This document shows positions 3,478-58,004 of a stretch of 64,000 nt of DNA, piece after piece (position 1 is the stretch's first letter; every line of letters begins with the position of its first letter). This DNA is from Candidatus Magasanikiibacteriota bacterium (GTDB lineage Bacteria > Patescibacteriota > Patescibacteriia > Magasanikbacterales > UBA922): positions 24,791 through 88,790 of the forward strand of contig JBPOJQ010000006.1 in NCBI GenBank assembly GCA_052033375.1, written 5' to 3'. The translations under genes and the position numbers were made by a program. The notes under the pieces were generated by a model that worked only from the letters and a program-made list of their open reading frames with translations, did no database searches and had not been told where the DNA came from.

Positions 3478-4035
3478 TTATTCATCTGCATGGGTATTAA
3501 TCCAAATCTCCTGTTTCTCATGTCCAAATGCTACAAAAATAATATCTGGTTTATTTCTCTGTATTTCATTGATAATTTGTTGATTAATGCGTTTCTCTTC
3601 TTTATTCTTATAGACAATCGCACCGCCCCGGACAAAAAAATTGGGTCCTGGATGCATGCCTGCGACATGCAGTGTCGGGAAGGCTTGCTGGATATAATAA
3701 AATAACTTCTTGAGAGTTTTTGTTTTTCCTGAACCAAGTAGAAAGATTGATTTTTGCTCATGTTCTGCGATAGAGAGAAGCTCAAGCATAAAATCAACCC
3801 CGGTAATCCTATTCAACCTGCCTTCTGAAAACAGGACTAGTCCCCTGCCATCACACAGTGATAGATCAGCAGTATTCAAGATTTCCCGAAATGAATGATG
3901 GCGATATGCGGATACAATCATCTCAGGATTTGGAGTAAAGATACGATGAAGTCGCTCCTCGTGAAGAAACGCCTGCGCTCTGTTTTTTGCCTCATCAATA
4001 GTGACTTCATCAACCTTTACATCGAGGATATGCAT
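3478..4035 (-). CDS. WecB/TagA/CpsF family glycosyltransferase (TagA-like)
   Basis: RIFTPNPEMIV ... LNTADLSLCDGRGLV are motifs typical of the WecG/TagA family. Length is 185 aa. Confidence 0.65.
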   Translation of the reverse strand: MHILDVKVDEVTIDEAKNRAQAFLHEERLHRIFTPNPEMIVSAYRHHSFREILNTADLSLCDGRGLVLFSEGRLNRITGVDFMLELLSIAEHEQKSIFLLGSGKTKTLKKLFYYIQQAFPTLHVAGMHPGPNFFVRGGAIVYKNKEEKRINQQIINEIQRNKPDIIFVAFGHEKQEIWINTHADE

Positions 4036-4229: not shown

Positions 4230-6869
4230 TTGTATATGATGCCTCAAAATTTTACCAACAAATCTCAAGAAGCAATTCAAAATGCACAAGGTATTGCGCA
4301 TGAAAATGGACAACAGCAAATAGATCCGCCACATTTGTTTCTGGCTCTGATCAACGAAGATGAGGGTGTTGTCGTATCAATTTTTAAAAAACTCAATGCT
4401 TCCGTCGATGTAATTAAGGAATTCCTACAGACACTAATTGATCGGATACCAAAACAGCCAATCAGTGCCCAAGGTATTGGACAAGTAACCCTCTCACAAG
4501 CGACACTCTATATACTACAAAACGCAAATAATGAAGCCCAAAAAATGAAGGATGAATTTATTTCAGTCGAGCATCTCCTCCTGGGATTTTTGACAAATAA
4601 AAACCCGATCAGTGATTTTCTGACACAGCAAGGCGTCACCTATCACGACATATTGAAGGTGCTCCAATCAATTCGTGGAAACCAGCGTGTTGACTCCCCT
4701 GAGCCTGAAAGCAAGTACCAGGCTCTAGAAAAATATGGGCTCAATCTCACCGAGCGAGCACGCAAAGAAAAACTCGATCCGGTGATTGGTCGTGACGATG
4801 AAATTCGCCGAGTCATGCAAGTGCTTACCCGACGAACCAAAAATAATCCAGTACTCATTGGTGAGCCGGGGGTAGGAAAAACAGCAGTGGTCGAAGGATT
4901 GGCGCAACGTATTGTAAATGGCGATGTACCAGAAAACCTCAAAGATAAGGAGGTCATTTCTCTGGATGTCGGTTCCCTACTCGCAGGTACCAAATTTCGG
5001 GGAGAATTTGAAGAACGTCTCAAGGCAGTAATCAAAGAAGTTACCAATAGTAATGGACAAATTGTTCTATTCATCGATGAACTTCATACAATCGTTGGTG
5101 CAGGTAGTTCAGACGGTGCAGTAGATGCATCAAATATGCTGAAGCCTGGGCTTGCTCGAGGTGAATTGCATATCATTGGTGCGACTACTATCAAGGAATA
5201 TCAAAAACATATTGAGAAAGACGCGGCTTTTGAACGGAGATTTCAAACTGTCATGGTCCACCAACCCACCCTCGATGATGCGACTGCGATTCTTCGTGGT
5301 ATTAAAGAAAAATATGAAATTCATCATGGGGTGCGAATTACTGACCCTGCAATTATAGCCGCAGTCACACTCTCGGATCGCTACATTAGTGATCGATTTC
5401 TTCCAGACAAAGCAATCGACCTCATTGACGAAGCCGCGAGTGCCCTCAAAATGCAGATTGACTCTATGCCTGATGATCTAGACAAAATGAAGCGCAAAAT
5501 GATGAAGATAGAAATCGAACTTCGGGCACTCAAAAAAGAAACTGACAAAGATTCAAAAGAACGTGAGAAATTGCTCAAAGAAGAATTAGCAAACCTCAAA
5601 GAAAAAAGTAAAGAAATCGAAATGCAGTGGGGTAATGAAAAAGAAATCATTACCAAAATGCGTGAACACAAAAAAGAAATTGATAAACTGAAACAGGAAG
5701 CTGAAATCATGGAACGTAAAGGTGATTTACAAAAAGTCGCTGAAATTAGATACGGAAAAATTCCAGTTATCGAAGAGGCAATCAAGAAGTACGAAGCAAA
5801 ACTTGCCGACCTGCAAAAGAAAAGTTCGATCCTCAAAGAAGAAGTCACTGAGGAGGATATTGCTCGAGTGGTATCGAAGTGGACTGGGATACCTGTAAGT
5901 AAAATGCTCGAAGATGAAGTCTTCAAGCTCGCCCGTATGGAACAGGAACTCAGTAAAAATGTAGTCGGACAAGAAGAAGCGATTGGCGCTGTCGCACATG
6001 CGATTCGTAGAAACCGGGCAGGAATTTCGGAAGAAAAGCGTCCAATCGGCTCTTTCATCTTCATGGGACCGACAGGTGTGGGAAAAACAGAGCTTGCAAA
6101 AACACTTGCTGAATTTCTGTTTAATGACCGTGAGGCGCTCGTGAGAGTAGACATGACAGAATATATGGAAAAACACGCGGTCAGCAAAATGGTCGGCTCT
6201 CCTCCAGGCTACATTGGGTTTGACGAGGGTGGACAACTCACCGAAATTGTACGTAGAAAACCATATTCAGTCATCCTATTTGATGAAATTGAGAAAGCCC
6301 ACCCAGACATATTCAATATCATGCTTCAAATTCTTGAGGATGGACATCTGACTGACGCCAAGGGTCGCAAAGTAAACTTCAAAAACACCGTTATTATCAT
6401 GACGAGTAATATCGCAAGTGAACTCATTGTACAGATGGGTACACAGGGAGAATTTGGTTTTGGTGAAAAGAAAAAAGGTGGAAATACAAAACAATCACAA
6501 GAAGCAATCAATAAACGAATTTTCGATGCACTTCGCGAACAATTCAAACCTGAGTTCCTCAATCGTATCGATGAAATCATTGTATTCCATCCATTGAAGG
6601 AAGAACAAATTCGTTCAATCGTCGATCTTCAGTTGGAAATTGTAATGAAGCGACTTGAAAAACAAAAAATAAAACTCGAGATCACTGACAAAGCAAAAGA
6701 TTGGCTCGCGAAAAAAGGTTATGATGAGAATCTCGGCGCTCGCCCGCTCAAGCGAGTAATACAGACAGAGTTATTGAATAAACTTGCGTTAAAAATCATT
6801 GAAAAAAGTGTAAGCGAGGGTGATACTGTGTATATTGACACAACTAAGGACGGATTAAAAATCAGTTAA
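4230..6869 (+). CDS. clpB: ATP-dependent chaperone ClpB (Hsp100, two AAA+ modules with middle coiled-coil domain)
   Basis: N-terminal Clp_N repeats. Two Walker A sites ([22 protein letters not shown]). A long middle coiled coil. [16 protein letters not shown] motif. Length is 879 aa. Confidence 0.95.
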
Positions 6870-6874
6870 AAAAA

Positions 6875-6902
6875 TAAAACCGCTCTCTCGAGCGGTTTTT
6901 AG
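6875..6902. terminator. bidirectional intrinsic terminator between clpB and the convergent ferredoxin gene
   Basis: CCGCTC-tctc-GAGCGG hairpin flanked by A-run and T-run on both sides. Confidence 0.6.
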
Positions 6903-7189
6903 TTTGGAAACAACTTATTCCCCTCTTCATCGTACAGATGTATGGCGAGCACGGGACATACTTGTGCCGCCATCATAATCGTATCCTCATCGGTGCTATC
7001 AGGATCAGTCACATATGCCAGATTTCCATCATCCATCTGGAATACTCCGGGAGCCACCACCACACATGATTGAGCCCCGATACACGCCTGGCGATCTACC
7101 ACAATACGGCGGATCTTTCCGCCTTTTCGTATTTTCATTGAAATGTCTTCTGGTAAATTGTCAGGAAGTTTTGGTTCGATGTCGGACAT
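6899..7189 (-). CDS. small ferredoxin (single-cluster Fe-S protein)
   Basis: CIGAQSC ... CP cysteine motif. Length is 96 aa, with an acidic C-terminus. Confidence 0.55.
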   Translation of the reverse strand: MSDIEPKLPDNLPEDISMKIRKGGKIRRIVVDRQACIGAQSCVVVAPGVFQMDDGNLAYVTDPDSTDEDTIMMAAQVCPVLAIHLYDEEGNKLFPN

Positions 7190-7195
7190 AACGTG

Positions 7196-8077
7196 TTATT
7201 TCAGTTCAATGGTACTGATGATATCTTCGAGATCGTCATAAGAATATCTGTAAAACTCATGGATTGAAAAAGTGTAGGTATATTTATCACCAAAAAATAC
7301 CAACTTATAATTTGTTCCTAAGCCTCCGTCGAAATATTCCAAAACAGTATGTGTATTTTTAGTGTTGTACAGAGATGGAATATTCACTAACTTAAAACCA
7401 TTTGAACTGCCACCAGAATTACGTGCTGATTCGGTTACATACATATCAACATCAGATCCGGTACTATTTCGTATGATAAGAGAAAAAGGACGTGTCAAAC
7501 GATAGCTCACACCTCCCTCAGGCATAGGATAGGTTATCCTACCAAATGAAACATAGGACGCACCCTTATCCCAAGAAACTTGTTCGTCAACGATATACGG
7601 CTCAAACTTATACAAAGGATCCCCCCACTTTTCATCGAATGGTAGACGCAATGATAATTCTTCATTTTCAAAAACAACAAACGTATTCGGAATTGACATG
7701 TTAACCTCTTGAGGAGGTGGAGGATTCGGTGTTTCAGGTTCAATATATTCTTCAGAAGAAAAAAATTTGCGTTCCGAATTGGAATAGACACCACTCCATT
7801 TACGTGTCATCCACCCATCATTTGATGGATCGTTTTTTCGAACTTCAGGAATCAAAACTTCATATTCTTTTTCTACCCTAACCTTAGGTTCTAATTTGGT
7901 CTCTTGCACAGGAGTTGGTTCAGACTTTTTTTCTTCCTGCTGAGAGAGAGTTGATTTTTGCATTGGTGCAGATTTGAACAAAAACTTATCCTGAAATATA
8001 AAAAAAGAAAGGATAACATTCAATCCAATACTGACGCAAAGTCCAATAGTCACAATATTTTTTCTGTCAAAAGTCAT
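7196..8077 (-). CDS. hypothetical membrane-anchored protein (N-terminal TM helix, Pro/Glu-rich linker)
   Basis: Long ORF with an N-terminal hydrophobic helix. No recognisable catalytic motif. Confidence 0.45.
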   Translation of the reverse strand: MTFDRKNIVTIGLCVSIGLNVILSFFIFQDKFLFKSAPMQKSTLSQQEEKKSEPTPVQETKLEPKVRVEKEYEVLIPEVRKNDPSNDGWMTRKWSGVYSNSERKFFSSEEYIEPETPNPPPPQEVNMSIPNTFVVFENEELSLRLPFDEKWGDPLYKFEPYIVDEQVSWDKGASYVSFGRITYPMPEGGVSYRLTRPFSLIIRNSTGSDVDMYVTESARNSGGSSNGFKLVNIPSLYNTKNTHTVLEYFDGGLGTNYKLVFFGDKYTYTFSIHEFYRYSYDDLEDIISTIELK

Positions 8078-12565: not shown

Positions 12566-12635
12566 AATTGACTTTTGTATAAATAATGTTAGTATCTGAT
12601 GAATCGGACGCCTCCACCGTCCGGAAGGAGAAAAA

Positions 12636-12821
12636 ATGACCAGGCGGAGACAAGAGGACCGACGTCGAAGGAGAAAGGCAGGTCGTCATGGTGTCGCGAT
12701 GTTGGATTTTCTCATGAAGATGGAAATCATCTCGAACTGCCTCGGAGAAAACGAACAAGTAGTAGAAGGGTCAGAGGAGGAGAATGGAGAGGAGGATCCT
12801 GCGGACGGCGAGAACGAGTAG
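12636..12821 (+). CDS. hypothetical 61-aa protein encoded in a GC-rich insert, antisense to the suf operon (Arg-rich N-terminus, hydrophobic core, acidic C-terminus)
   Basis: Textbook RBS ccggAAGGAGaaaaaATG. GC content is visibly far above the surrounding genes. Coding status is unproven. Confidence 0.3.
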   Translation: MTRRRQEDRRRRRKAGRHGVAMLDFLMKMEIISNCLGENEQVVEGSEEENGEEDPADGENE

Positions 12822-12929
12822 TCTCGCACCGTGTAGATGCCACGCGCTGCGCCAGACAAGTCTCCCACTCGGGATCGACGACTCTGGTGTGGCGCTTCTT
12901 AATTTTAAAATAATGTTACATACATTTGT

Positions 12930-24937: not shown

Positions 24938-24985
24938 TACATACAAATAAAAATAATACAATACTACATTGCACTACTACACACT

Positions 24986-25567
24986 ATGAAACATGAATTA
25001 TATTCACTTCCCTACGATTTCAATGCACTCGAACCCCACATCGACGCGAGAACCATGGAAATTCATTATACAAAACATCACCAAACCTATCTGGATAATT
25101 TCCTAAAATTTTTAGAAAAATACCCAGAATTACAAGAAAAAACTGCTGAAGAAATTTTACGTTCACTTAATTCACTGCCGATCGATGAGATGGATAAGAC
25201 AATCTGCAGAAATCACGCAGGCGGGTTGGTAAATCACAATCTATACTGGTCAATCATGGGACCACACAAAAACGAAAATGTACACCTAAAAAAAGAAATA
25301 GAAGAGACGTTTGGTTCAGTCGACGCATTCAAAGAACAATTCAGTGCACTTGCAACCAAACATTTTGGAAGCGGGTGGGCATGGCTCGTACGAGATGAAG
25401 CTCAAAAACTAGTCACCTACTCTCTCCCCAACCAAGATTCACCTTATATGAAAGGCCATACTCCTATCATAGGACTTGACGTGTGGGAGCATGCATATTA
25501 TCTCAAATATCAAAACAAACGCCCTGACTATGTGAAAGCATGGTGGGAAGTGATGACACTGTTCTAG
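24986..25567 (+). CDS. Fe/Mn superoxide dismutase
   Basis: HYTKHHQTYLDN ... DVWEHAYYLKYQN(K)RPDY, with the canonical metal ligands. The metal type was not assigned. Confidence 0.95.
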   Translation: MKHELYSLPYDFNALEPHIDARTMEIHYTKHHQTYLDNFLKFLEKYPELQEKTAEEILRSLNSLPIDEMDKTICRNHAGGLVNHNLYWSIMGPHKNENVHLKKEIEETFGSVDAFKEQFSALATKHFGSGWAWLVRDEAQKLVTYSLPNQDSPYMKGHTPIIGLDVWEHAYYLKYQNKRPDYVKAWWEVMTLF

Positions 25568-25589: not shown

Positions 25590-25618
25590 TTGACAAGATA
25601 CAAAAAATTGTGTATTCT
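25590..25618 (+). promoter_or_regulatory. near-consensus sigma70 promoter (TTGACA-17-TATTCT) preceding a GC-rich non-coding transcript
   Basis: Seen in the sequence. Confidence 0.5.
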
Positions 25619-25625
25619 CCGTACA

Positions 25626-26036
25626 CTTTTTCAAGAGACCACAGCTCTATATCAGATTGGATATAAATTTGTGGTCTGAGTAGGGGTTATGGACACGTCC
25701 CCTTCAGAGGACAGCTCTGCGGGTCGGCCTCATCAACCCCCTCCAGAGAAATCTTTGTAGCATCGGGCTAACGTATCCAATGCAACAAGTGGGCAGATGT
25801 AGTGTCTGATGCGTCGCGCCATGCGCGAAAGCTCCACTCATGTGCCTGCCTATATGCATGCCAATGCTGCGAGGTTCACCCTCGCCTCGCATGAAGATTT
25901 TTGAGGTGCGCTAACGTGGTTTACCCTTGGGCCACGATACGCGAACACCTCTCTGTCCTCTGCACTTTTCCATAATAGCAATAGAACATAGGATAACAAA
26001 AAACCACTCTCATATACGATAGTGGTTTTTTGTTTT
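25626..26036 (+). ncRNA. about 400-nt GC-rich candidate structured RNA bounded by its own promoter and an intrinsic terminator (class unassigned)
   Basis: Promoter at 25590-25618. Terminator AACCACT-ctcatatacgat-AGTGGTT + T-run at 26000-26036. Internal stems AGACCACA...TGTGGTCT, GGGG...CCCC, CAGAG-gacag-CTCTG, CGTGG...CCACG. No convincing ORF or RBS. Confidence 0.4.
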
Positions 26037-26069: not shown

Positions 26070-27416
26070 CTAGTAATCACTCAATTTATCAATTACCTCA
26101 AAACTCTTAATTTTTTCAATCGCTTTTGCCTCAATCTGACGAATACGTTCACGAGTTACCCCAAATTCCTTACCCACCTCTTCGAGTGTATGCGTGACTC
26201 CGTCTTCGAGACCAAACCGCATTTCCAAGATTTTTTTCTCACGTGGAGAAAGATCCTGAATCGCTTCGCGAATATAGTCTTTCAACAATTCAGAACCCGC
26301 AGCAGCTGACGGACTAATATTTTTTACATCCTCAATAAAGTCTGAGAGTGAGGTATCATCGTCGTCGTCATCACCGACAGAAGTTTCAAGTGATACGGTA
26401 TCTTGTGAAATCTTAATAATATGTTTTACTTTCTCGACGTCTTCGCCCATTTCTGCCGCAATTTCTTCTGGAGTTCCATCACGACCAAGATCTTGAAGCA
26501 ATCGACGTGATACTTGCTGAAGTCGATTAATTGTTTCTACCATGTGGACTGGAATACGGATGGTACGAGAATGATCTGCGAGCGCACGAGTAATCGCCTG
26601 CCTAATCCACCACGTAGCATACGTAGAAAATTTGAATCCCTTCCGATAATCAAATTTTTTAACTGCACGAAAAAGTCCGATATTTCCTTCCTGAATCAAA
26701 TCCAATAACGACAATTGTTTCCCCACAAATTTCTTCGCGATAGAGACCACCAGACGCAAATTCGCTTCAATCATACGTCTTTCTGCTTCTTTGTCACCAC
26801 GTTCTTTGCGTTTTGCCAAAGACATTTCTTCCTCAGCATTGAGCAAATGTACTTTTCCAATTTCACGCAAATACATCTGAATAGAATCTTGTGAAATACT
26901 TCCTAGATCAAAATATGAACCACTCTCTTTATCAGGCTGTTCACCCTGGAATCCCTGAAGCATTTCTCGCTTTTTCTCAACCGTATGATTACCTCCGAGA
27001 AGTCCTTCCTGACCTTCAACCAGAGAAATACTATTTTTATCCATGAGATTCAAAAAATACTCATAGAGATCAAGATAGAGTTCAGCTCGAGGAAACTTCA
27101 ATAGGACTTCTTTTTCAGTAAGAAATCCTCGATTGCGTCCTTTGGTCACGAACTCATGAATCTGATCTGCGGTTGGCGGAAGTACTATTTCCTGTTCAGG
27201 TTTTCGTTTAGGAGCCTGCTGTCGGAAATTACGTACAAATTTTTTCTTTCCCTGCTTTCCTCGATTTTTTCCAAATTGATTCCCGGTTTTTGCCCCGCTT
27301 ACGCGTCGGGATTGGGCTTTAGCACTAGGTGCTGATGGTGCCGCTTTTTTTGAAGCGGTGATAATTCGTTTCTTCGCTTTGAGCGATTGTTTAGTTGTCG
27401 ATGGTTTCTTGGCCAT
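26070..27416 (-). CDS. rpoD: RNA polymerase sigma factor RpoD (sigma70) with Lys/Ala-rich basic N-terminal extension
   Basis: Region 2 ([39 protein letters not shown]). Regions 3 and 4 ([20 protein letters not shown]). Confidence 0.95.
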
Positions 27417-27448
27417 GACGATAAGAATAATTTTATTTAAAATAACCC

Positions 27449-29254
27449 TTATTGATATTGTTGTAGCGACCGGAGTAATGACTCGATAGTTGCGCTATCC
27501 CCCCGCATCTCTGCATCTCTGAGAGCATTCTGTATTACACTTCGTTTCTGTTTTATCCACTCTGATCGTATGCGCATTGCTAATGCGATGATCTCCTGCT
27601 CACGAGCTTCTGATGTAAAATCAGAAAACTCCTTCTCTCCCATGAGAAGAAGTACGTCGAGAGGATTTTCAGTGTCAACATGTGTATAACGCTCCCGTAC
27701 ATGTGTAAAATCACATGGTATACGCTGAGTATAGGCTATTTTTACGATTTCGTAAAGGTCTTGATGGAGTGCTGTGGAAAACGCATCAATCGTGAAAAAA
27801 TTCTCAGGTATTTTGAGCACCAATCCGGGCGCAATATATAGAAGAGAAAACAGACGATCAGCCAGCACTGTCAGATGATCTATGGTAGATTTCACCGGGG
27901 CTCCTGTAGGTGAAGAACTACGCGAATGGATGGTCTTCTGTTGTTCCTTGAGAATACGAGCAATGTCCTCGCGCAACACTACCACATCCACCTGAAGTCG
28001 GTGGGATAATGTTGAAAGCCAGTGATCACGTTCTACCGCATATGGTATTCGAGAAATTTCGAGCAATAGCTCATTTGCAATCTTTTGTTTTGTTTTCGGA
28101 TCGTCAAGTGGCATGTCTGCAAATGACCGATCAAAATACCATTGCATAATATCTTTCGCATGCGCAACAGATTCAAACCATACAGACGCATTTTTCTTAA
28201 TACATTCATCTGGATCTTTTCCTGCACCTTCTGGAATCTGAATAACTTTTACATTCATTCCATCTTCAATCAATAAATCAATACCTCGTTTTGCTGCAGC
28301 AATACCCGCAGAATCTGAATCAAAAGCCATATTTACATTCGTGGAATATCGTTTCAATAATGTTATCTGATGTTCGGTCAAAGCAGTACCGCTTGTCGCA
28401 ACCACATTAGTCATCCCCGCCTGATGACAGGCAATTACATCCATCTGGCCTTCGACCATGACAATCAAATCGCGTGCCTTGATTTCACGTTTTGCCTTAT
28501 TCAAACCAAACAAGACCCGCGATTTATCATAGAGTAACGTCTGAGGTGTATTCACATACTTTCCGCCACTATGTTCAGTTTCCACGAGCACACGACCAGT
28601 AAATCCGACTACAGCATCATGCGCATCCCAAATTGGAAACATGATGCGTCCACGAAAACGATCATAGTATCCCCGTCCGCTCCGCTCAGAAGTACCATCT
28701 TTCTTAATTGCAAGCCCACTCGCAATCACATCATCAATTGCATGTCCTTTTTTGAGCAAATACTTGGTGAGAAGATCCCACTGATCCGGAATAAATCCGA
28801 TTTGCCAGGCACTAATAGTCTCATCTTTCAATCCACGATTAACAAGATATTCAAGCGCTGGTCTGGACTGAGGAAGTTTGAGAAGAATGTAATGAAAAAA
28901 TTTTGACGCATCATGATTGATATCTTTCAAACGATTTTTCTGACTAGTCTCAGTGGTATTAATTGTTCGAGATAATACAATACCTGCCTTATCAGCAAGA
29001 AATCGGAGTGCATCCCGAAATTCCATTCCCTCAATTTCTTGAATAAACGTAAACACATCCCCGCCTTTGGCACACCCAAAACAATGCCAGCTCTGTCGCT
29101 CGCGATTTACCATAAACGAAGGAGATTTCTCGTGATGAAACGGACAGAGTCCCTTGTGGTTGACACCTGCCGGCTTCAATGCAACATACTCAGAAATCAA
29201 GTCCACCACATCGACCTTCTCTTTTATACGTGTAATGTCATCGTTCATACTCAT
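27449..29254 (-). CDS. dnaG: DNA primase DnaG
   Basis: CHC2 zinc finger ([11 protein letters not shown]...WHCFGC). Toprim ([14 protein letters not shown]). The start is taken at MSMNDD; the ORF extends to 29380. Confidence 0.9.
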
Positions 29255-29447: not shown

Positions 29448-29852
29448 CGGCACCATCGTTCTCATGGTTGCGATTCCTGCAGTGCTCATGTGCACTCGCA
29501 ATTACGAGAAACCGAAGACCATCTCAAAGAAGGGACGAAAACCGTAGAGGAGGACTCGGACCAAGGCGAAAAAAAAGCGCGTAAACAACATGCTCGAAAC
29601 CGAGAATGCTCGTGCAGATCTCGATGAGGCAGGCTTCTGACCCCCCCACTACCCCCACAAGAGGAGTAGACCACACAGCTTTCTACGAAGAAGGGTATCC
29701 GCGGGGGAACAACAAAATACCAGTTGCATCCCCCACTGTTGGACCCGAATCATATCGGATCCAGCACAAGGAGAACTATGCAACTGGTATTTTTGTATCA
29801 CGATATTGTGTTGACAGCCAATGTGCCACCCCGGATCAAAAAGTCTCCTGAG

Positions 29853-37311: not shown

Positions 37312-38895
37312 ATGGCACTCTACCACAAACACCGACCGCAGACCTTTGATACTATTATTCATCAGGAACACATCACGACCACTCTGAAGAATGAAATCAC
37401 CGGAGGCATGGTAGCTCACGCATATCTTTTTTCTGGTCCGCATGGCGTAGGAAAGACAACAACTGCCCGTATTTTAGCGAAATCTTTGAACTGTAAAAAT
37501 CGAAAGTCTGATGAGCCAAATCCATGTGATCAGTGCGACTCATGCAAAGACATCTCGAATGCGCGATCAATTGATGTCATAGAAATTGACGCAGCCAGTC
37601 AGACAGGTGTCGATAATGTGCGAGAAAATATTATTGAAAATGCACAATTCAAACCTACACTTGGAAAATACAAAATTTTCATCGTAGATGAGGTGCACAT
37701 GTTGTCCACAGCTGCATTTAATGCACTCCTAAAAACACTTGAGGAGCCACCAGAACATGTCGTATTCATTCTTGCAACGACTGATGCACAAAAACTTCCA
37801 GCAACAGTAGTATCACGATGTCAGAGATTCACGTTCTCACGAATTCCTGATGAAACCACCAAAAAACATCTTCAATCAATCGCGAAAGAGGAAGGGGTAA
37901 CTATTGATGAGGTCGTGCTTGATGCAATTGTACGCAAAGCTCGTGGAGGCGCACGCGATGCAGTGAGCCTGCTCGATCAATTAATCGCAACCGGGGAAAA
38001 GCATCTTACGGCACAGGCAGCTTCACATATCATGCCAACTACATCAAATGAATCCCAAATCAGGTTTCTCTCACATCTAATCGAAAAAAATGCTATCGCA
38101 ACACTCGGTGACATTGAAATATTGAGTGAACAAGGAACACATCCGTATTTTTTCATGGAAGAAATCGTACAAATGCTCAGATTACTCCTAATCACATCGA
38201 TTGATGAAAAATTGGCAAAAAAAGAATCGTATCTTCCAGAAAGTGATATAGCAACATTACAATCACTCACCACACACATATCAAAACGCGATATCGTACG
38301 CCTGACAGACAGAACAATCGCTCGAATGCAGGAAGTGAAATCATCACTCCTCCCCTACCTCCCCCTTGAGCTTCTTGCTGTCGAGTGGTCTGCAGACGAA
38401 GAAGATGTCACTCCTCCTCCCAGCCGCCCTGTGGCAACGGCGCCCGCTGTAGTGGTGCCAAAACAACAACCCACTACTCCACAATCCCAGACATCAGTAT
38501 CGTCGCCCACAAGCAGAGAAGAGAAAAAGAGTGATATACCTCACACAGACAATCTGCCTCCTGCACCAGCAGACGCTGATTTATCCCAAGTAAAGAAAGC
38601 GTGGAATTCGCTCATCACTGAAATCGAAAAAACTACGCCATCGCTTATATTCATACTCAAAAACGCGATATTACTCTCATCAACACACGGAGTACTCAAA
38701 TTGAAGGTCGCCTATAGTTTTCATCAAGATAAAATCATGCAGGTAGCCACCCGAAAAAAAATAGAAGACCATCTCGCAACCATACTCGGATTCAGATTGT
38801 CACTCGAAGTAGAAATAGATGAAATGATGCAACAAAAAAATGCAGCCTCAGATCTCAATGATCTCGCGACAGCATTGGGCGGTAGTATTATTTAA
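37312..38895 (+). CDS. dnaX: DNA polymerase III subunit gamma/tau
   Basis: YLFSGPHGVGKTTTARILAKSLNC ... zinc module CDQCDSC ... sensor motifs. Length is 527 aa. Confidence 0.9.
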   Translation: MALYHKHRPQTFDTIIHQEHITTTLKNEITGGMVAHAYLFSGPHGVGKTTTARILAKSLNCKNRKSDEPNPCDQCDSCKDISNARSIDVIEIDAASQTGVDNVRENIIENAQFKPTLGKYKIFIVDEVHMLSTAAFNALLKTLEEPPEHVVFILATTDAQKLPATVVSRCQRFTFSRIPDETTKKHLQSIAKEEGVTIDEVVLDAIVRKARGGARDAVSLLDQLIATGEKHLTAQAASHIMPTTSNESQIRFLSHLIEKNAIATLGDIEILSEQGTHPYFFMEEIVQMLRLLLITSIDEKLAKKESYLPESDIATLQSLTTHISKRDIVRLTDRTIARMQEVKSSLLPYLPLELLAVEWSADEEDVTPPPSRPVATAPAVVVPKQQPTTPQSQTSVSSPTSREEKKSDIPHTDNLPPAPADADLSQVKKAWNSLITEIEKTTPSLIFILKNAILLSSTHGVLKLKVAYSFHQDKIMQVATRKKIEDHLATILGFRLSLEVEIDEMMQQKNAASDLNDLATALGGSII

Positions 38896-40019: not shown

Positions 40020-40090
40020 TCGGGGATCGTCTAATGGTAGGACTACAGGTTCTGGACCTGTGTATCGGGGTTCGAATCCCTGTCCCCGAG
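40020..40090 (+). tRNA. tRNA-Gln (anticodon CUG)
   Basis: Manual fold. Acceptor TCGGGGA/TCCCCGA. D-arm GTCT-AATGGTA-GGAC. Anticodon stem ACAGG/CCTGT with loop TTCTGGA (CTG at positions 34-36). T-arm CGGGG-TTCGAAT-CCCTG. Discriminator G. CCA not encoded. Confidence 0.85.
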
Positions 40091-40142: not shown

Positions 40143-40261
40143 AAGAGGGATTCGAACGAGGGAAGGGTGAAACCGTGAGGTTTCACTGGACTGAGGAAAG
40201 TACACGAAAACCCGAAGGTTTTCGTGATATGTTCGAATAGCGAAGCGCCCTGTCCCCGAGC
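40143..40261 (+). repeat. tRNA-Gln 3'-end-derived element 1: starts with an inverted copy of the tRNA T-arm/3' region (GAGGGATTCGAAC) and ends with a direct copy of the tRNA 3' end (CCCTGTCCCCGAGC); internal perfect hairpins
   Basis: Direct comparison with tRNA positions 40072-40093. Internal hairpins GTGAAACC-gtgag-GGTTTCAC and CACGAAAACC-cgaa-GGTTTTCGTG. Confidence 0.6.
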
Positions 40262-40306
40262 AAAATATAAATACACCCATATAGGTGTATTTATATTTAT
40301 GATAGT

Positions 40307-40407
40307 GAGAGGGATTCGAAGGACGCGAGAGAAGCCGAGCGTGCGAGGCTTCGGTGCGCAGCGCCCCGGTACCCGAACGGAGTGAGGGGGAATCCCTGTC
40401 CCCGAGC
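40307..40407 (+). repeat. tRNA-Gln 3'-end-derived element 2: same architecture (GAGAGGGATTCGAA ... GGGGGAATCCCTGTCCCCGAGC)
   Basis: 21-nt match to the tRNA 3' end with the TTCG of the T-loop deleted. Internal hairpin GAAGCC-gagcgtgcgag-GGCTTC. Confidence 0.6.
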
Positions 40408-40418
40408 TAGTGACAGTA

Positions 40419-40763
40419 TTAATCTTTGGCGCGACGATAAATGACACCAGTGATAATCGAAGCAATTAATGCAAAGGTTATTAGTACAGTAATCCAATTT
40501 TGAGTAACCAAATACCAGATGAGTGTTGCAAACATTTTGCAAAATCCATACACAAATTGTATGGCCACATTCAGACTTTCATAGATGATGTTAAAAATAG
40601 GAATTTGTATCATTCCTGTACTATTATTAACAATAACAAAACAGCTAATACTGATAATAGCTAATAGCGCTATAATTATCCATTCAATTTTGTGCTTTTT
40701 TGAGACCATATTATCATAAAAGACGGCGTAGCCATCTCTATATTTGTGTAGTTTTGCGACCAT
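40419..40763 (-). CDS. small hypothetical membrane protein (3 TM) at the edge of the AT-rich island
   Basis: 114 aa, hydrophobic. AT-rich composition like the island. Confidence 0.4.
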   Translation of the reverse strand: MVAKLHKYRDGYAVFYDNMVSKKHKIEWIIIALLAIISISCFVIVNNSTGMIQIPIFNIIYESLNVAIQFVYGFCKMFATLIWYLVTQNWITVLITFALIASIITGVIYRRAKD

Positions 40764-45918: not shown

Positions 45919-46644
45919 ATGCATCGGTCATCACATGCTATTCTCGTAATCCTCACAGCACTCATCACTCTCGGTGCTGGCTGTACCAACACAGAGATGA
46001 AAAGAACTTACATCTCAAGCGATGGACCCACCGCAGAAGAACTATTTGTAAAAAAAGAATCTACGCCAACTAACAACAATCAATCGACCTCGAGCCCACC
46101 ATCTCAATTACTAGCTACTTCACCTAATTCACCTACTACAACCACAAATTCTATGGAATTCAATGCTTCAAAACATTACACTGCGATACTACATACCAGC
46201 AAAGGTAATATTGAAATCGAACTTAATTTTGGACAAACGCCAAATACGGTAAAAAACTTTGTCGATCTCGCAAGAAAAAATTTCTACGATCAGACAATTT
46301 TCCACCGCGCAATCAACGGGTTCATGATCCAGGGTGGCGACCCCAATGGTGACGGTACAGGCGGACCTGGGTATCGATTCAATGACGAGCCATTCACCGG
46401 GGAATACACGCGTGGCGCAGTGGCTATGGCAAATGCAGGCCCAAACACCAATGGTAGTCAATTCTTTATCATGCATGCCGACAACCCCCTACCAAAAGCC
46501 TATACAATCTTTGGACGTGTAATCAAAGGAATGGAAGTGGTAGATGCGATTGCAACAGACAAAGTCACGATGAGCTCATCAGGAGAAATGTCAAAACCTG
46601 TATCGCCTACATCAATTACAACCGTCGAAATTCAAGAAAAATAG
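45919..46644 (+). CDS. lipoprotein peptidyl-prolyl cis-trans isomerase (cyclophilin type)
   Basis: Lipobox LGAGC. Cyclophilin core FHRAINGFMIQGGDP ... MANAGPNTNGSQFFI. Confidence 0.9.
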   Translation: MHRSSHAILVILTALITLGAGCTNTEMKRTYISSDGPTAEELFVKKESTPTNNNQSTSSPPSQLLATSPNSPTTTTNSMEFNASKHYTAILHTSKGNIEIELNFGQTPNTVKNFVDLARKNFYDQTIFHRAINGFMIQGGDPNGDGTGGPGYRFNDEPFTGEYTRGAVAMANAGPNTNGSQFFIMHADNPLPKAYTIFGRVIKGMEVVDAIATDKVTMSSSGEMSKPVSPTSITTVEIQEK

Positions 46645-46717
46645 CTTACCATTGCTATTTTGAGAGAAATCTGATACACTCCCCGCTTATTCAAGAAATT
46701 CAATAATATACGTTCAT

Positions 46718-47248
46718 ATGGGTAATTTCAATCGAGGTGGCGGAAGATCATTTGGTGGCAAAAAATTCGGTGGCGACCGAGGTGGATTCCGAGGTGGCGA
46801 CCGCAGAGAAGGTGGCAGATCAGAAATGCATGCTGCTACGTGTAGTGAATGTGGCAACGCATGTGAAGTCCCCTTCCGACCTACCGGAGCCAGACCTATT
46901 TTCTGCAGCACGTGTTTTGGTAAGCAGAAAAGCCAGGAAGGCAAAAGTTTTGGCGGAGGATCACGTGAAAGAAGTTTTGACCGACCACGCTTTGAAAACA
47001 AACGCCCTGATTTTCGACAGGCTCCTATTCAGGACAACAAAGCAATCAACGAACTCAAACAACAGATGGAGATTATAAACAACAAACTTGAGCGAATTCT
47101 AAAAGCAGTGAGCCATGAATTTTCTGAAGAAAAACAACCAGAAAAAAAGAAAGAGTCAAAAGCACCAAAAAAATCTGAAGAGAAGAAAGAAGAAGTGGTT
47201 TCTGAAAAACCAAAAGCAAAAAAAGCTAAAACGAAAAAGAAGAAATAA
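46718..47248 (+). CDS. Arg/Gly-rich zinc-ribbon protein with Lys-rich C-terminal tail (putative nucleic-acid binding)
   Basis: RGG/GGR repeats. CSECGNAC-x13-CSTC zinc ribbon. KKxx tail. Length is 176 aa. Confidence 0.5.
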   Translation: MGNFNRGGGRSFGGKKFGGDRGGFRGGDRREGGRSEMHAATCSECGNACEVPFRPTGARPIFCSTCFGKQKSQEGKSFGGGSRERSFDRPRFENKRPDFRQAPIQDNKAINELKQQMEIINNKLERILKAVSHEFSEEKQPEKKKESKAPKKSEEKKEEVVSEKPKAKKAKTKKKK

Positions 47249-50329: not shown

Positions 50330-51367
50330 TTATTCCACAATCTTCGGTCGTAATTCTTTCAGAATATCTTCCAACTCCTCAAAACTTTCCACTTTCATCA
50401 ATTTCATCCGCAAATCTTTCGCTCCGTCCATTCTCTCCCCCATTCGTTCATTTTTGAAATACCACGCGAGATGTTTACGAAATGTAGGCATCGATCGTTT
50501 CTGAATTTCTTCTGGAGTAATACCATCAGCCTTGTTTTTCTTTCCCATCGCCCGGATACGTGACTGATACATCATATGGAGTTGTGCATGCTCCAATACC
50601 ACTCTCACTCGCTCAACCAGTGATACAGAAAAATCTGGATGCATATATTCTTTGAAAAACCATGGATTCCCGAGCGCCCCCCGAGCAATCAATACCCCAT
50701 CAGCGCCAGTAATCTCTAGAGCTTCATCGACCTGTCGTGGTTTGTGTATATCTCCATTTGCAAGTAGTGGAACAGTCGCGATTTTTTTTGCTTCAGCAAT
50801 TCTACCCCAATCAGAAACCCCAGTGTACCCCTGCTCTTTGGTACGACCATGTACCGTAATCAATTGTGCACCAGCTTCTTCGATTGCAGGAATGAAATAT
50901 TTGAAATCATCAGGTGAAGACCAGCCGAGACGAATTTTTATGGATACAGGAGTTGCACCAATTGCACGTTTAATTTCCCGAATGATATCTTGGGCAAGCT
51001 TTGGGTCTTTCATGAGGGCACAGCCATTAAAATTACTTGTAATTTTGTATACTGGACAACCCATATTGATATCAATACCTTCGGGGCCTGCATGCTCCAT
51101 CACAATCGCTGCTGCACGAGCCATCGTGAGTGGGTCTGAGCCAAAAATCTGCTGCACAATAGGGCGCTCTGCATCGACAAAATCAGTCATACCGAGAGTT
51201 TTTTCATTATCACGAACAATAGCTTCCGCAGAAACCATTTCACGAAACACGACATCTGCCCCGCCGATACTTCTCACAATTTGACAAAAGGCCGAATCAG
51301 TCATGTCAGCCATTGGTGAAAGCGCGAGAATTTTTTTATTTTTTTTCAAAATATTTGTAATCCACAT
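50330..51367 (-). CDS. tRNA-dihydrouridine synthase (Dus family)
   Basis: LSPMADMTDSAF ... NMGCP ... TIM-barrel FMN motifs. The start is taken at MWITN; the in-frame extension to 51460 lies in GC-rich foreign-looking DNA. Confidence 0.85.
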   Translation of the reverse strand: MWITNILKKNKKILALSPMADMTDSAFCQIVRSIGGADVVFREMVSAEAIVRDNEKTLGMTDFVDAERPIVQQIFGSDPLTMARAAAIVMEHAGPEGIDINMGCPVYKITSNFNGCALMKDPKLAQDIIREIKRAIGATPVSIKIRLGWSSPDDFKYFIPAIEEAGAQLITVHGRTKEQGYTGVSDWGRIAEAKKIATVPLLANGDIHKPRQVDEALEITGADGVLIARGALGNPWFFKEYMHPDFSVSLVERVRVVLEHAQLHMMYQSRIRAMGKKNKADGITPEEIQKRSMPTFRKHLAWYFKNERMGERMDGAKDLRMKLMKVESFEELEDILKELRPKIVE

Positions 51368-51473
51368 AGAGATAATATGCAGTGGGTGTTGGAAAGACGC
51401 GTACGGTCCCCCCGAGACACCCACCACTCTGACATGTACCGCACTACTCCACGCGCTCATCAGCGCGAGAATA

Positions 51474-51608
51474 CTACGGAGAATCGTTAATCAACAGCGT
51501 ATACAGGAGTACGACTTCTGCAACGCGGTCGATGAGCCGGACCAACACAGCGCAGGGTCCGCCACGGAGTTGCTGACTCAGGGCGACCAGCGCTTCGATG
51601 AACGACAT
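51474..51608 (-). CDS. hypothetical 44-aa ORF in GC-rich island
   Basis: RBS AGGGGG 6 nt upstream of the ATG. Very weak call. Confidence 0.2.
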   Translation of the reverse strand: MSFIEALVALSQQLRGGPCAVLVRLIDRVAEVVLLYTLLINDSP

Positions 51609-51621
51609 GAGAACCCCCTTG

Positions 51622-51867
51622 TTACAGAACCACTTCCATGAAGAGTCCTTCGACCATCTCGACGACCTCCGCCCAGAACTGGACGAGGCTCTCGACGAGA
51701 TTCGCCAGGAATTTCGGATGAGTGACATCCGATTTCAGGCGACCGAGGTCGACACCGAGCTGACCGATGATGGTCGCACCCGCACGAAGCAGGCAGACCG
51801 GGATCTCGGAGAGAGCCGCGATCATGCGATCAGTCGTGTCCATATCTTCCACCGCTCCAATTGCCAT
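51622..51867 (-). CDS. hypothetical 81-aa protein in GC-rich island
   Basis: GGAG about 9 nt upstream of the ATG (MAIGAVEDMD...). Composition is foreign to the host. Confidence 0.3.
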   Translation of the reverse strand: MAIGAVEDMDTTDRMIAALSEIPVCLLRAGATIIGQLGVDLGRLKSDVTHPKFLANLVESLVQFWAEVVEMVEGLFMEVVL

Positions 51868-52018
51868 GTTTTTCACTCCTCTCACCAAGACTTATTTCTT
51901 GCTTGGTTTGCATCTATAAAGAAAAATTCTTTGCAGATGTAAACCAAATATACCTTGATTGCCCGGGGTGCGCCTTTTGCTAAGCACATGCCCCGGACAA
52001 TCGTTTCACCCCCTTGCA

Positions 52019-52372
52019 TCACGCAAGAACCTTCCCAGCACTCTTGCGAATGAATGCTCCAGGATTGACCACCCTCTCCTCGAGCTCAAGCGTGAGTTGC
52101 ACGTACTTGATCAGGGCATCAGCCTGAACAGCCGTCGACGCGATGATCTGTTCCCCGACGGGTGGATCCAATATGATGAGGGATCGGCCGTCAGCCATGA
52201 TCTTGAAGTTCACGGTGTAGATCTGGCCTGCAGGAGACCTGTACTCATACACCGTAGTAATCGGATCTTGCGGACGCTTTTGCGGCACCTCTGTTGAAGA
52301 AATGCGTTTACCAGGAGACCTGAACAGCTTCCCCAGCTGTTCACCGTACACATTCACCATCTCTGATTTCAT
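52019..52372 (-). CDS. hypothetical 117-aa protein in GC-rich island
   Basis: RBS AAGAGG 4 nt upstream of the ATG (MKSEMVNVYGEQL...). No family recognised. Confidence 0.35.
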   Translation of the reverse strand: MKSEMVNVYGEQLGKLFRSPGKRISSTEVPQKRPQDPITTVYEYRSPAGQIYTVNFKIMADGRSLIILDPPVGEQIIASTAVQADALIKYVQLTLELEERVVNPGAFIRKSAGKVLA

Positions 52373-56178: not shown

Positions 56179-56368
56179 AATCCTCAATTACTTCGTAGTG
56201 GACAAAATAATATTCGGCTTCGGGGTTTTGTATATATATTCAGTATCTCATTTTCCCCGTCGGCCGCTTTTTTATACCACAGATACTTTTCACAATACAC
56301 AGATTCCACAATACACAAAAGCATCTCATACAACAAAGCGACCATCACAACACTATTTCGCGTTGTGT

Positions 56369-56725
56369 CTAGCGGACAAAAGAAGCCCGCCTTTGAAAGA
56401 ACATCTCATTGCACACAGGACACCGCCTCTCATGCGGGAGTCGGACGAACTCACTGACCCGGATCTCATTGATCCCGACAGACTTCCCACACACAGACGT
56501 CTGGTGCCTGCCGACGTATGCGAGCAGGTGGAAGATACTGATCTCCTGCCCATGGCACATGTCGTCATGGAGGAGCCGGACACAGCGGGGGCACCTCCCC
56601 ACGTCCGGGAGCTGAGCGAACTCACCCAGATCGACGATCGGATCACGATGCGTGGCCCTGCCACACGCATCGCCGAACATGTTGTAGATTCCCCGATGAA
56701 TCCACTGGTATTTCATGTGAATCAT
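56369..56725 (-). CDS. small HNH-endonuclease-like zinc-ribbon protein in GC-rich island
   Basis: Strong RBS AAGGAG-7-ATG. CPRC ... HDDMCHG ... N ... H ... CPVC, an arrangement consistent with an HNH motif bracketed by two CxxC pairs. Length is 118 aa. Confidence 0.4.
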   Translation of the reverse strand: MIHMKYQWIHRGIYNMFGDACGRATHRDPIVDLGEFAQLPDVGRCPRCVRLLHDDMCHGQEISIFHLLAYVGRHQTSVCGKSVGINEIRVSEFVRLPHERRCPVCNEMFFQRRASFVR

Positions 56726-57350
56726 CTCGATTCTCCTTGGCAGCCTCTGATGGCGGGATTGCCAGCTGCGCCAGATGTACATACTATACAGCCAGCGCAG
56801 TAGACAATAGTTGATAGATGAATCTACCAAAAAGACAAACAATTGTCAAGATCTAGGCATAAAGTATGAACTACCACCGGCTGAACGCCGGTGGTTTCGT
56901 TCTGCTGGCTACGCCAGCGCAAGCATTCGTGACTATATGAAGGTATGAGAGTCCAATGGGGGGGTTCGGGGGGGTGAAAACTGTCTGAGCTACGAGAGTA
57001 GAATCATACACTAATCTTAGTGAGGCGAGTTTTTTCACCCCCGAAAGTTTTTGGTACTTTTTGGTTACAAAAAGTACGGATAAGGTACTCCGTATTGCTT
57101 TCAAGCTAGATGGTCACCACAGTGTCTATTCTACTCTCCGAAGAAAAGCTAAACGCAATTCCAAGAGCTTCGCGTGTAAACGCACTCACCTGTCTGACGC
57201 TGGTGATTTTTAGGGTAAAAAAATTGAAGACCCTGTACTTGTGGTACAGGGTGCCAGTTAGACGCTAACTGGAAAACGTGTGGCAGGATTGCCGGATCAA
57301 GGACTAAGTTCCAAGGATCCAAAAGAACCCAAGGTTCAAAGTGAAAAGGA

Positions 57351-58004
57351 CTACTTGCGGGGCTGCACGAACACCCAGCGGCTGTCAGGGTCCCAGACGT
57401 AGTCGGGGTAGCCATTGCAGCAGTAGAGCCACAGACCGTCACCGCTGCGCTCGACGTAGAACACGTCCAGGTACCCGCCCGAGTCAGAGATCGGCTCCAT
57501 ACCAATGAGGAGCAACTTGCCCATGGGCTGATCCTTGTACTGCAGGCGCAGCTGGGGACCGACCTCAGCCGGGCAGCGTTCGAGACCGAGCTCGATCGCA
57601 CGCTTGTAGATTTCACGACGCGTGGCACCCTTCGCGAAGCCGAGTTCACCGACCGAGACATTGACCAGGTCGAGTTCGACCTCCTCGGTCGCCACCGTAA
57701 AGGCAGGATTCCCGAGGATATCGGTCGCAACTCCGCCGACCTTCCCGCCCGCCTTCACGATGGCCAGACGGAACTGACGAGCATTCTTCATGCCCGTGCC
57801 GAGCTTGATCGTCTTCCAGACTTTGAAGTCGGATTTTGACGGAGAGAGGCCGGACAGGAATTTCTTGAGCCCATTCGGGTTCTCGATCCAGCCCTGCATG
57901 ACATAGCAAGGCATGTCAGGAAGATTCTCCGCGATCCTCGCGATCAACTTTGCAGTCTGCTTATCCATGGCGGTTTTTCCTATTGGTTTTCGCCATTTAT
58001 CCAC
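57351..58004 (-). CDS. hypothetical protein, GC-rich (horizontally acquired-looking)
   Basis: 217 aa. Composition is strongly GC-shifted. No motif recognised. Confidence 0.4.
   Translation of the reverse strand: MDKWRKPIGKTAMDKQTAKLIARIAENLPDMPCYVMQGWIENPNGLKKFLSGLSPSKSDFKVWKTIKLGTGMKNARQFRLAIVKAGGKVGGVATDILGNPAFTVATEEVELDLVNVSVGELGFAKGATRREIYKRAIELGLERCPAEVGPQLRLQYKDQPMGKLLLIGMEPISDSGGYLDVFYVERSGDGLWLYCCNGYPDYVWDPDSRWVFVQPRK

Follow-up and report, generated by a model that had tools for sequence, protein, structure and literature searches.

OLE, ROOL, GOLLD, and raiA are large bacterial RNAs with multi-helix folds that are supported by covariation. They are GC rich relative to their hosts, have their own promoters and terminators, and show a patchy, lineage-restricted distribution. 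No partner gene lies next to them, and they have no known biochemical role. Other structured RNAs have recognizable architectures. RNase P RNA contains the P4 pseudoknot, formed by its CR-I (GGAAAGUCC-like) and CR-V (ACAGAA..GGCUUA-like) strands, and the RNA of the signal recognition particle has a domain IV (helix 8) motif. 6S RNA, ~180 nucleotides (nt) long, is a rod that mimics an open promoter by means of a large central bubble. The Patescibacteria (candidate phyla radiation [CPR]) make up a large share of bacterial diversity but, to our knowledge, almost nothing is known about their non-coding RNAs. Here, we describe a locus between the sod and rpoD genes of a Candidatus Magasanikiibacteriota bacterium, in a 64,000-nt stretch of contig JBPOJQ010000006.1 that we refer to as the window. 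Positions 25590-26031 of its + strand probably contain the gene for a ~405-nt structured non-coding RNA, which shares with OLE, ROOL, GOLLD, and raiA all of the properties listed above.

An initial annotation, made from the letters of the window alone, had placed a near-consensus promoter and an intrinsic terminator around about 400 nt of GC-rich, hairpin-dense sequence between these genes. The promoter has a TTGACA -35 hexamer at 25590-25595 and, after a 17-nt spacer, a TATTCT -10 hexamer at 25613-25618, which puts the predicted transcription start at ~25625. The terminator (25998-26031) is bidirectional, being common to the RNA and the convergent rpoD gene. It has a stem at 26004-26025 (CCACUCUC/GAUAGUGG) between an A-run and a U-run. 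However, a scan of 2 kb found six promoter-like hexamer pairs when 5.2 are expected by chance, and a consensus scan overlooked the terminator because its stem has one mismatch and its loop, if the inner pairs are not counted, is 12 nt long. Therefore, the case for both signals rests on their conservation. In a multiple alignment, TTGACA was invariant in the nine aligned promoter-bearing copies of the locus, at a constant distance from the 5' hairpin of the RNA, and the relatives had TATTTT, TACTTT, or TATGTT at the place of the -10 hexamer. The place of the terminator was also kept, with compensated changes in the letters of its stem.

The composition of the spacer was also as first described. 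It is 502 nt long, with ~405 nt between promoter and terminator, and the longest + strand open reading frame (ORF) within it has 31 codons' worth of amino acids. Its GC content is 0.555 at 25700-25899 and 0.51 at 25800-25999, compared with 0.404 for the whole window. The minimum free energy (MFE) of the + strand is -156.1 kcal/mol (z = -7.6), and none of 100 shuffled sequences was as stable. The - strand fold had a z score of -6.4. We found no similar sequence elsewhere in the window, where the RNA is single copy.

To compare homologous loci, we used contigs encoding RpoD homologs (P0001 to P0008) that are 80 to 95% identical to the RpoD of the window in our own alignment. Among the matches listed, the closest named RpoD and SOD homologs were from Candidatus Magasanikbacteria and other Patescibacteria. 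Twelve syntenic loci were retrieved, one of which (L082) ends at the end of rpoD. The loci share the gene order cysS, a holin-like gene, an amino acid kinase family gene (PF00696), dnaG, rpoD, spacer, sod, a dsbA-like gene, and a translin gene. Spacer length in the relatives is 426 to 1,321 nt. The window spacer shares just two blocks of ~60 nt with them, at 70 to 84% identity, and this is so even for L081, with an RpoD that is 95% identical. In the multiple alignment, short conserved blocks alternate with variable stretches, and indel lengths are not multiples of three. We recognized 11 further copies of the RNA in 10 syntenic loci from eight related lineages (L081, L083, L084, L085 with duplicates L086 and L087, L088, L089 with duplicate L090, L091, and L092), which makes 12 copies with that of the window. 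The window, L081, L083, L084, L085, L088, and L089 have single copies, and L091 and L092 have two each, called c1 and c2.

Ten copies from nine assemblies were aligned with MAFFT, without reference to structure (alignment A2). RNAalifold predicted a consensus fold in which 20 of 38 pairs had changed on both sides. Its helices were H1 (columns 16-35 with 56-75, 18 pairs), LR (97-100 with 301-304, 4 pairs), S3 (159-166 with 182-189, 8 pairs), and S5 (246-250 with 292-296, 5 pairs). We then counted pairs with LR lengthened to 7 pairs, for a total of 41 pairs and 402 alignment cells. Pairing was possible in 87.6% of the cells, compared with 39 to 53% when the 3' partners were slid by one to three columns. 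Both-side changes were seen in 21 of the 41 pairs, compared with 2 to 9 when slid, and the covariation score was 0.419, compared with 0.08 to 0.16. None of 500 shuffles equaled the observed pairing values, but shared ancestry inflates shuffle statistics, so these figures are not probabilities and the slid control is the fairer comparison. When full-length copies were folded without constraint, the MFE structure held the whole of LR together with P3, S3, and S5 in 5 of the 10. Forcing LR cost 0.3 kcal/mol in L089, 2.6 in the window, and 5.5 to 8.0 in L081, L084, and L088. The alignment had 56 G-U cells and 16 A-C cells. This excess marks the + strand as the RNA strand, in line with the orientation of the promoter, and both suggest that the RNA is expressed from it.

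The covariation shows that a predicted fold has been kept: a long 5'-terminal hairpin (H1), followed by a four-way junction that is closed by LR and has P3, S3, and S5 as its arms. All coordinates below are on the + strand of the window. H1 spans 25626-25687. At its core, AGACCACA (25636-43) pairs with UGUGGUCU (25670-77), and the apical stem is UAUAUC:GAUAUA. Nine of its 18 pairs have changed on both sides, and 89.9% of its cells are paired. The base of H1 is weak in the window, where a U-rich leader faces GGGG at 25683-86. However, covariation supports pairing of this G-rich stretch with the 5' leader, as in UUUUGUCCCC:GGGGGUAGG, AUUUUCCU:AGGAAAAU, and UUUCUCCA:UGGGGGAAA. Next is J1 (25693-25704), a conserved pyrimidine-rich linker that reads ACACGUCCCCUU in the window and GCRCGUCUCYCC in the consensus, with invariant CGU columns.

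The junction is closed by pairing of the LR 5' strand CAGAGGACAG (25705-25714) with the LR 3' strand CUGUCCUCUG (25953-25962). In L085 and L092c2, there is a compensatory change from GACAG/CUGUC to GGCAG/CUGCC. By hand inspection, one A-U pair of LR is gone from both strands in L092c1 and L091c1, and the helix reaches 12 bp in L092c2. The first arm, P3 (25715-25748, CUCUG-C-GGG ... CCU-C-CAGAG), is present in the folds that contain LR. By hand check, it is a perfect hairpin of 9 bp with a tetraloop in L083 and L089. In L085, where GGAAGAG:CUCUUCC replaces GGGGAG:CUCCCC and J1 is unchanged, it is a perfect hairpin of 11 bp. The second arm begins with S3, an RNAalifold helix in which AGAAAUCUU (25747-25755) pairs with AAGAUUUUU (25894-25902). 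Six of its eight pairs have changed on both sides. The third arm, S5 (25903-25951), is formed by GAGGUG (25903-08) and CACCUC (25946-51) plus an inner hairpin. Pairing is kept in 93.2% of its cells, with the variants GAGGCA:UGCCUC, GACACUUCC:GGAAGUGUC, and GGGGCAC:GUGCCUC. LR, P3, S3, and S5 meet with zero to two unpaired bases, so the junction is a near-perfect four-way junction.

S3 encloses a variable central domain (25756-25893) of ~130 to 138 nt in the window and 79 to 161 nt in the relatives. The motifs GGCUAACG (25766-73) and AGCUCCAC (25830-37) recur in it. Its last hairpin (25869-25885) has the C-rich loop UUCACC, which resembles the anti-Shine-Dalgarno sequence of 16S rRNA. The loops of this hairpin are UUCACC(CUC), GCACUCCUC, CUCACCUCC, and UUACCUCCU across the window, L081, L085, L092c1, and L091c1, and no such loop is present in L083, L084, L088, or L089. 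Between LR and the terminator is an A-rich tail (25963-25997) with no supported consensus pairing. It consists of CACUUUU (25963-69), an A-rich stretch, and the purine motif AUAGGAUAAC (25988-25997), which lies in conserved columns with the consensus AGAGGAUAAC. The RNA as a whole is rich in Shine-Dalgarno-like (AGAGGA and GGGGAG) and anti-Shine-Dalgarno-like (CACCUCC and CCUCU) stretches, including the hairpin loops in five copies. This likeness may point towards the translation apparatus, but it is a lead and nothing more.

Two parts of the junction have competing pairings. First, the P3 5' strand (CUCUG..GGGGAGAC) has an upstream partner as well, J1 together with the LR 5' strand, with which it can form a hairpin, H2. 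Support for P3 is moderate because H2 competes with it. In a separate MAFFT alignment of the J1-P3 region, register shifts preclude a reliable formal count for P3 and H2, and the comparison of the two was made by hand. Second, the tail motif AGAGGAUAA is similar enough to the LR 5' strand to be able to take its place opposite the LR 3' strand. A hand check found this pairing kept in L088, through UCUUC/GAAGA, and broken in L085. These competing pairings may be a conformational switch, or they may be a mere result of low-complexity sequence. Two further pairings were considered and rejected. One was a helix, H3, between the G-rich stretch after H1 and the C-rich P3 3' strand, considered along with a pseudoknot model. 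It was rejected because covariation is stronger for the base of H1, in which the 5' leader is the partner of that G-rich stretch. The other was a P4-like pairing of AGAAAUUCU with AGAAU in the tail. This pairing is missing from the window, L083, and L092c2, and it is the alternative, with the strand that precedes S5, that covaries.

The known distribution of the RNA is narrow and uneven. In the tandem pairs of L092 (2251-3165, - strand) and L091 (6348-7251, - strand), c1 has a promoter without a terminator and c2 has a terminator without a promoter, so the two copies are presumably co-transcribed. L092c2 also has an internal direct duplication of 34 nt, AGUAUUCUGAGGGUAAGUCUUUUACAGAAGCCCC. At the other extreme are loci L227 and L228 (GCA_964447765.1), reached through the SOD homolog P0134, in which the gap between sod and rpoD is 60 nt (3583-3642). 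The gap consists solely of a bidirectional terminator of the same design as in the RNA loci, and nhmmer found no copy of the RNA within 6.6 kb around it. The L228 RpoD is 94% identical to that of the window, and a neighbor-joining tree places it as the sister of L081, deep within the RNA-bearing clade. Therefore, a recent clean loss is the simplest reading of the empty slot. This is an absence from the locus, and relocation elsewhere in the L228 genome is possible.

In two more distant relatives, the slot holds something else. L218 (5528-7284, - strand) and L217 (5279-6437, - strand) have a gene for a 150-amino-acid protein downstream of rpoD, and also one or two units that each contain a TTGACA promoter, a Shine-Dalgarno sequence, a GC-rich (54 to 57%) ORF of 102 to 130 amino acids, a structured 3' element, a AAUAGUAAAACC tail, and a terminator. 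The 3' element has a closing helix and three hairpins, and over 148 nt, one L218 unit is 74% identical to the other. The likeness of these units to the RNA is limited to the tail, the terminator, and a short leader match. One of the small ORFs had been missed by the gene caller and has a weak, sub-threshold Pfam match to EF-Tu domain 2 (E = 0.0024).

Some RNA-bearing loci also carry additional material. The 1,321-nt spacer of L088 has two extra units between rpoD and sod (~6367-7196, - strand), of ~480 and ~215 nt with GC contents of 0.52 and 0.45. Both have a TTGACA promoter and an intrinsic terminator. With no relationship to the RNA and no Rfam match, they are further candidate non-coding RNAs. 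L084 has an insertion of ~150 nt with two additional G/C-rich hairpins (~6400-6550, - strand), between the conserved tail and the terminator.

Wider searches found no further homologs. There was none by nhmmer among 80 genome contig loci listed by an RpoD scan, in which the best relatives had 63% identity. A metagenome scan with the pattern GGTTTTTTN{25,45}CASARGRCAGWGA returned at least 120 loci, all chance matches, with no homolog by nhmmer among the matches listed. Scans of viral contigs gave seven chance loci and no homologs, and the phage and plasmid collections had no BLAST match to the RNA. The gene is accessory. It was found in a narrow Magasanikbacteria-like clade, has been cleanly deleted in one sister lineage, and is tandemly duplicated in another. 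At this locus, the RNA can be dispensed with, and it tends to be duplicated and to change quickly.

The initial annotation had left the class of the RNA open because it lacked the hallmarks of RNase P RNA, transfer-messenger RNA (tmRNA), and signal recognition particle (SRP) RNA. The covariance-model searches agree. With the 4,227 models of Rfam 15 at the gathering score, the only match in the whole window was a tRNA-Gln at 40020, and eight homologous loci had none. At E ≤ 10, the window region and the spacers of six homologous loci had chance matches only, nearly all of them to the terminator hairpin. There was no match at this threshold to RNaseP_bact_a, RNaseP_bact_b, Bacteria_small_SRP, or Bacteria_large_SRP in these sequences, and 6S RNA was not matched either. 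A tmRNA has a tRNA-like domain (acceptor stem, T-arm, and CCA end) and a tag reading frame, and neither ARAGORN nor Rfam found one in the window. It is also not a cis-acting riboswitch or leader by position, because only the convergent rpoD gene, on the opposite strand, lies beyond its terminator. What is present is compensatory helices, no conserved ORF, and its own transcription signals, as expected for a gene for a structured non-coding RNA. A search of the literature on structured RNAs or RNase P RNA in CPR bacteria found nothing relevant. The RNA belongs to no described family and is absent from Rfam.

We favor the explanation that 25590-26031 is the gene for a novel, narrowly distributed accessory RNA that probably acts in trans, and we give this a probability of roughly 0.55. 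Selection appears to maintain the junction core. J1 and the tail are conserved yet outside the consensus helices, and the variable arm seems peripheral. The RNA most likely acts as a stable folded particle, whose ends H1 and the terminator hairpin would protect. From the rigid junction core, J1 and the purine-rich tail would be offered to a partner, of which a protein or the translation apparatus is the most plausible kind, and the variable domain would be a tolerated peripheral decoration. The junction may open and close through the two competing pairings, H2 and the LR 3' strand with the tail.

Several points weigh against this explanation. The 10 rows of the alignment come from one narrow clade with its shared ancestry, and two of them are the paralogous L092 copies. 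The variable central domain and the 150-nt insertion of L084 were removed by hand before aligning, and the central domain yields no consensus fold in a MAFFT alignment. For the window, L081, L084, and L088, local pairings that compete with LR are preferred in the MFE structure, with margins of 2.6 to 8.0 kcal/mol. By hand analysis, the c2 copies favor H2, with H2 helices of 10 to 13 bp and a P3 of just 5 bp. The transcription start, the stability of the RNA, and any processing of it are predictions from sequence. In addition, no terminator separates sod from the RNA promoter, and some of the RNA pool may therefore be sod 3' untranslated region (UTR). Finally, the idea that the RNA acts in trans by binding a partner is a guess drawn from its anatomy.

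The alternative that survives best, although we consider it improbable, is that the locus produces a base-pairing regulatory small RNA or a sod 3' UTR fragment, with pyrimidine stretches that pair with the ribosome-binding sites of target mRNAs. The stretches that might do so are J1, the LR 3' strand, CACCUCC of the P3 3' strand, and the C-rich loops of the central domain, and the purine-rich tail might act likewise in the opposite sense. The sod gene (24986-25567, + strand), which encodes an Fe/Mn superoxide dismutase, does run into the RNA promoter without a terminator, the conserved J1 is C/U rich, and five copies have the hairpin loops UUCACC, CUCACCUCC, or UUACCUCCU. Tandem paralogs, gain and loss, and fast sequence turnover are also typical of regulatory small RNAs. 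However, the known seed-type small RNAs are far simpler than a 400-nt RNA whose four-way junction covaries, and the C-rich loops are missing from L083, L084, L088, and L089. The neighbors are not obvious targets, because no Shine-Dalgarno sequence is recognizable before the starts of sod or rpoD (26070-27416, - strand) in the window (24940-24990 and 27417-27450). No target complementarity turned up, and no genome-wide search for it was made.

Less probable again is a genetic-conflict or selfish RNA (antitoxin-like, defense associated, or derived from an element) in an insertion hot spot between convergent genes. The slot is highly plastic, being empty in L228 but occupied by two RNA copies in L091 and L092, by three different promoter-terminator units in L088, and by GC-rich small-ORF units in L217 and L218. 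The GC content is well above the genome average, and divergence is very fast even at 95% RpoD identity. Against this, no locus has an adjacent toxin, reverse transcriptase, transposase, or recombinase gene. The RNA is single copy in the 64-kb window and has no similarity to the phage, plasmid, and viral contig collections. No terminal repeats were noticed in the alignments, although no repeat scan was run.

A more ambitious proposal is no better placed than the genetic-conflict one, and we consider it speculative. It holds that this RNA founds a new class of accessory, fast-evolving CPR RNAs with a four-way junction that toggles between two conformations, both backed by covariation. The RNA would be a decoy or switch, acting either on the translation apparatus or on some factor by which that apparatus is attacked. 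It would display mimics of the Shine-Dalgarno sequence and of the anti-Shine-Dalgarno sequence at the 16S rRNA 3' end, and the slot would also recruit small GC-rich protein cassettes with related 3' elements.

It is doubtful that the RNA is a ribozyme or a ligand- or temperature-sensing switch, with two sets of mutually exclusive helices as its working parts: H2 as opposed to LR plus P3, and pairing of the LR 3' strand with the tail as opposed to LR. In support, both pairings survive sequence change. In hand analysis, the c2 copies have H2 helices of 10 to 13 bp in RNAs where LR can reach 12 bp, and the change in L088 preserves the pairing of the LR 3' strand with the tail. The MFE and LR-forced folds are only 0 to 8 kcal/mol apart, and in its compactness, with few if any bases left unpaired, the junction is like the cores of ribozymes and riboswitches. 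However, the segments concerned are of low complexity (G runs, C runs, AGAG, and CUCU), and so alternative pairings easily arise by chance. There is no downstream + strand gene to control, no known ribozyme or riboswitch model matches, and no strictly invariant unpaired core, as in catalytic RNAs, is evident.

The initial annotation had noted that the size of the RNA is in the range of RNase P RNA and tmRNA. The size is right, but the housekeeping identity that it might suggest is improbable. A strongly diverged RNase P RNA, tmRNA, SRP RNA, or 6S RNA, beyond the reach of family models, would fit the size, the stability, and the separate promoter, and no gene for any of these was detected elsewhere in the window. 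The GACAG:CUGUC closing helix has the sequence of P2 of the E. coli RNase P RNA (M1 RNA) and, as P2 does, closes a multi-arm junction. Even so, seven homologous sequences had no Rfam match to those families at E ≤ 10, and ARAGORN found no tmRNA. The 5' and 3' ends are not paired with each other to form a P1, because the 5' end is the self-contained H1 and the 3' end is the terminator hairpin. There is no P4 pseudoknot either, because the partner of the AGAGAAAU stretch that follows P3 is the strand 5' of S5 rather than the 3' tail. The four-way junction is also unlike the 6S rod. Finally, an essential single-copy housekeeping RNA would not be expected to be missing from its locus, as in L228, or to occur in duplicate, as in L091 and L092. 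Therefore, a housekeeping identity is very unlikely.

We give least credence to a non-functional spacer or the decayed remnant of a GC-rich small protein gene: the L217 and L218 slots do hold GC-rich ORFs of 102 to 130 amino acids, each with a Shine-Dalgarno sequence and its own TTGACA promoter, and their units share an AAUAG...AAAACC-terminator tail with the RNA, and the leader of the window (UUUUUCAAG...ACCACAGC) resembles that of L218 unit 1, but these ORFs have no protein similarity to any frame of the window spacer, the promoter and terminator are conserved, and compensatory upkeep of helices across nine genomes is unlike decay. The gene caller did report ORFs in the spacers of relatives (124 amino acids in L084, 127 in L091, 85 in L081, and 61 in L085). 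However, they are on different strands and in different frames, have odd compositions, and share no protein similarity with one another. We therefore rejected a decayed pseudogene.

The window has other GC-rich islands (0.54 to 0.645, in a genome of 40% GC), at 12605-12904, 29505-29788, 38248-38591, 40205-40440, 46283-46972, 51356-52352, 56325-56810, and 57224-57973. Small ORFs occur in some of them. An ORF at 12638, for a charged peptide, is preceded by signals of its own (a promoter and a Shine-Dalgarno sequence), and another (56369-56842, - strand) encodes a protein with CPRC..CPVC motifs. The islands show no resemblance to the RNA, nor to the small ORFs found in L217 and L218.

A covariation-supported RNA gene of ~400 nt with a defined structure model and no counterpart among 4,227 Rfam families can be compared with known RNAs at several levels. 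Within its own clade, the contrast between L228, a natural knockout, and the duplications in L091 and L092 will be useful for comparative work. Beyond it, type A RNase P RNA is similar in being 350 to 400 nt long with a stable GC-rich structure, and in having a closing helix that encloses a P3-like hairpin, a helix with a large variable domain, and a further hairpin. It differs in that our RNA has no P4 pseudoknot, CR-I (GGAAAGUCC), CR-V, P1, or covariance-model match, and is dispensable and duplicable. The RNA polymerase-binding RNAs of the 6S/Ms1 type are similar in being non-essential, stable, and abundant looking, with paralogs possible. However, our RNA is ~400 nt with a four-way junction and no Rfam match, and it adjoins rpoD by happenstance, in a convergent arrangement and not an operon. 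RsaE and RoxS, which represent the Gram-positive small RNAs with C-rich motifs, also have paralogs and C/U-rich, anti-Shine-Dalgarno-like stretches in loops or regions without supported pairing. An oxidative stress link for our RNA, through sod, is by position only. It is three to four times larger than they are, its conserved parts are mostly helices and not seeds, and its C-rich loops are not universal.

OLE, ROOL, GOLLD, and raiA remain the closest in kind. Our RNA differs from them in having no match to their Rfam models, in its host group, the Patescibacteria, in the absence of a prophage or tRNA cluster context, and in its simple four-way junction with one hypervariable arm. At ~400 nt, it is also smaller than OLE, ROOL, and GOLLD. 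If its range goes no further than a genus-level clade, it adds a single lineage-specific accessory RNA to those known, which is a modest gain. If the family is wider or a partner is found, it joins the short list of large structured RNAs of unsolved function. In both cases, it is a novel family of the same kind as these RNAs, the lineage-specific structured bacterial non-coding RNAs.

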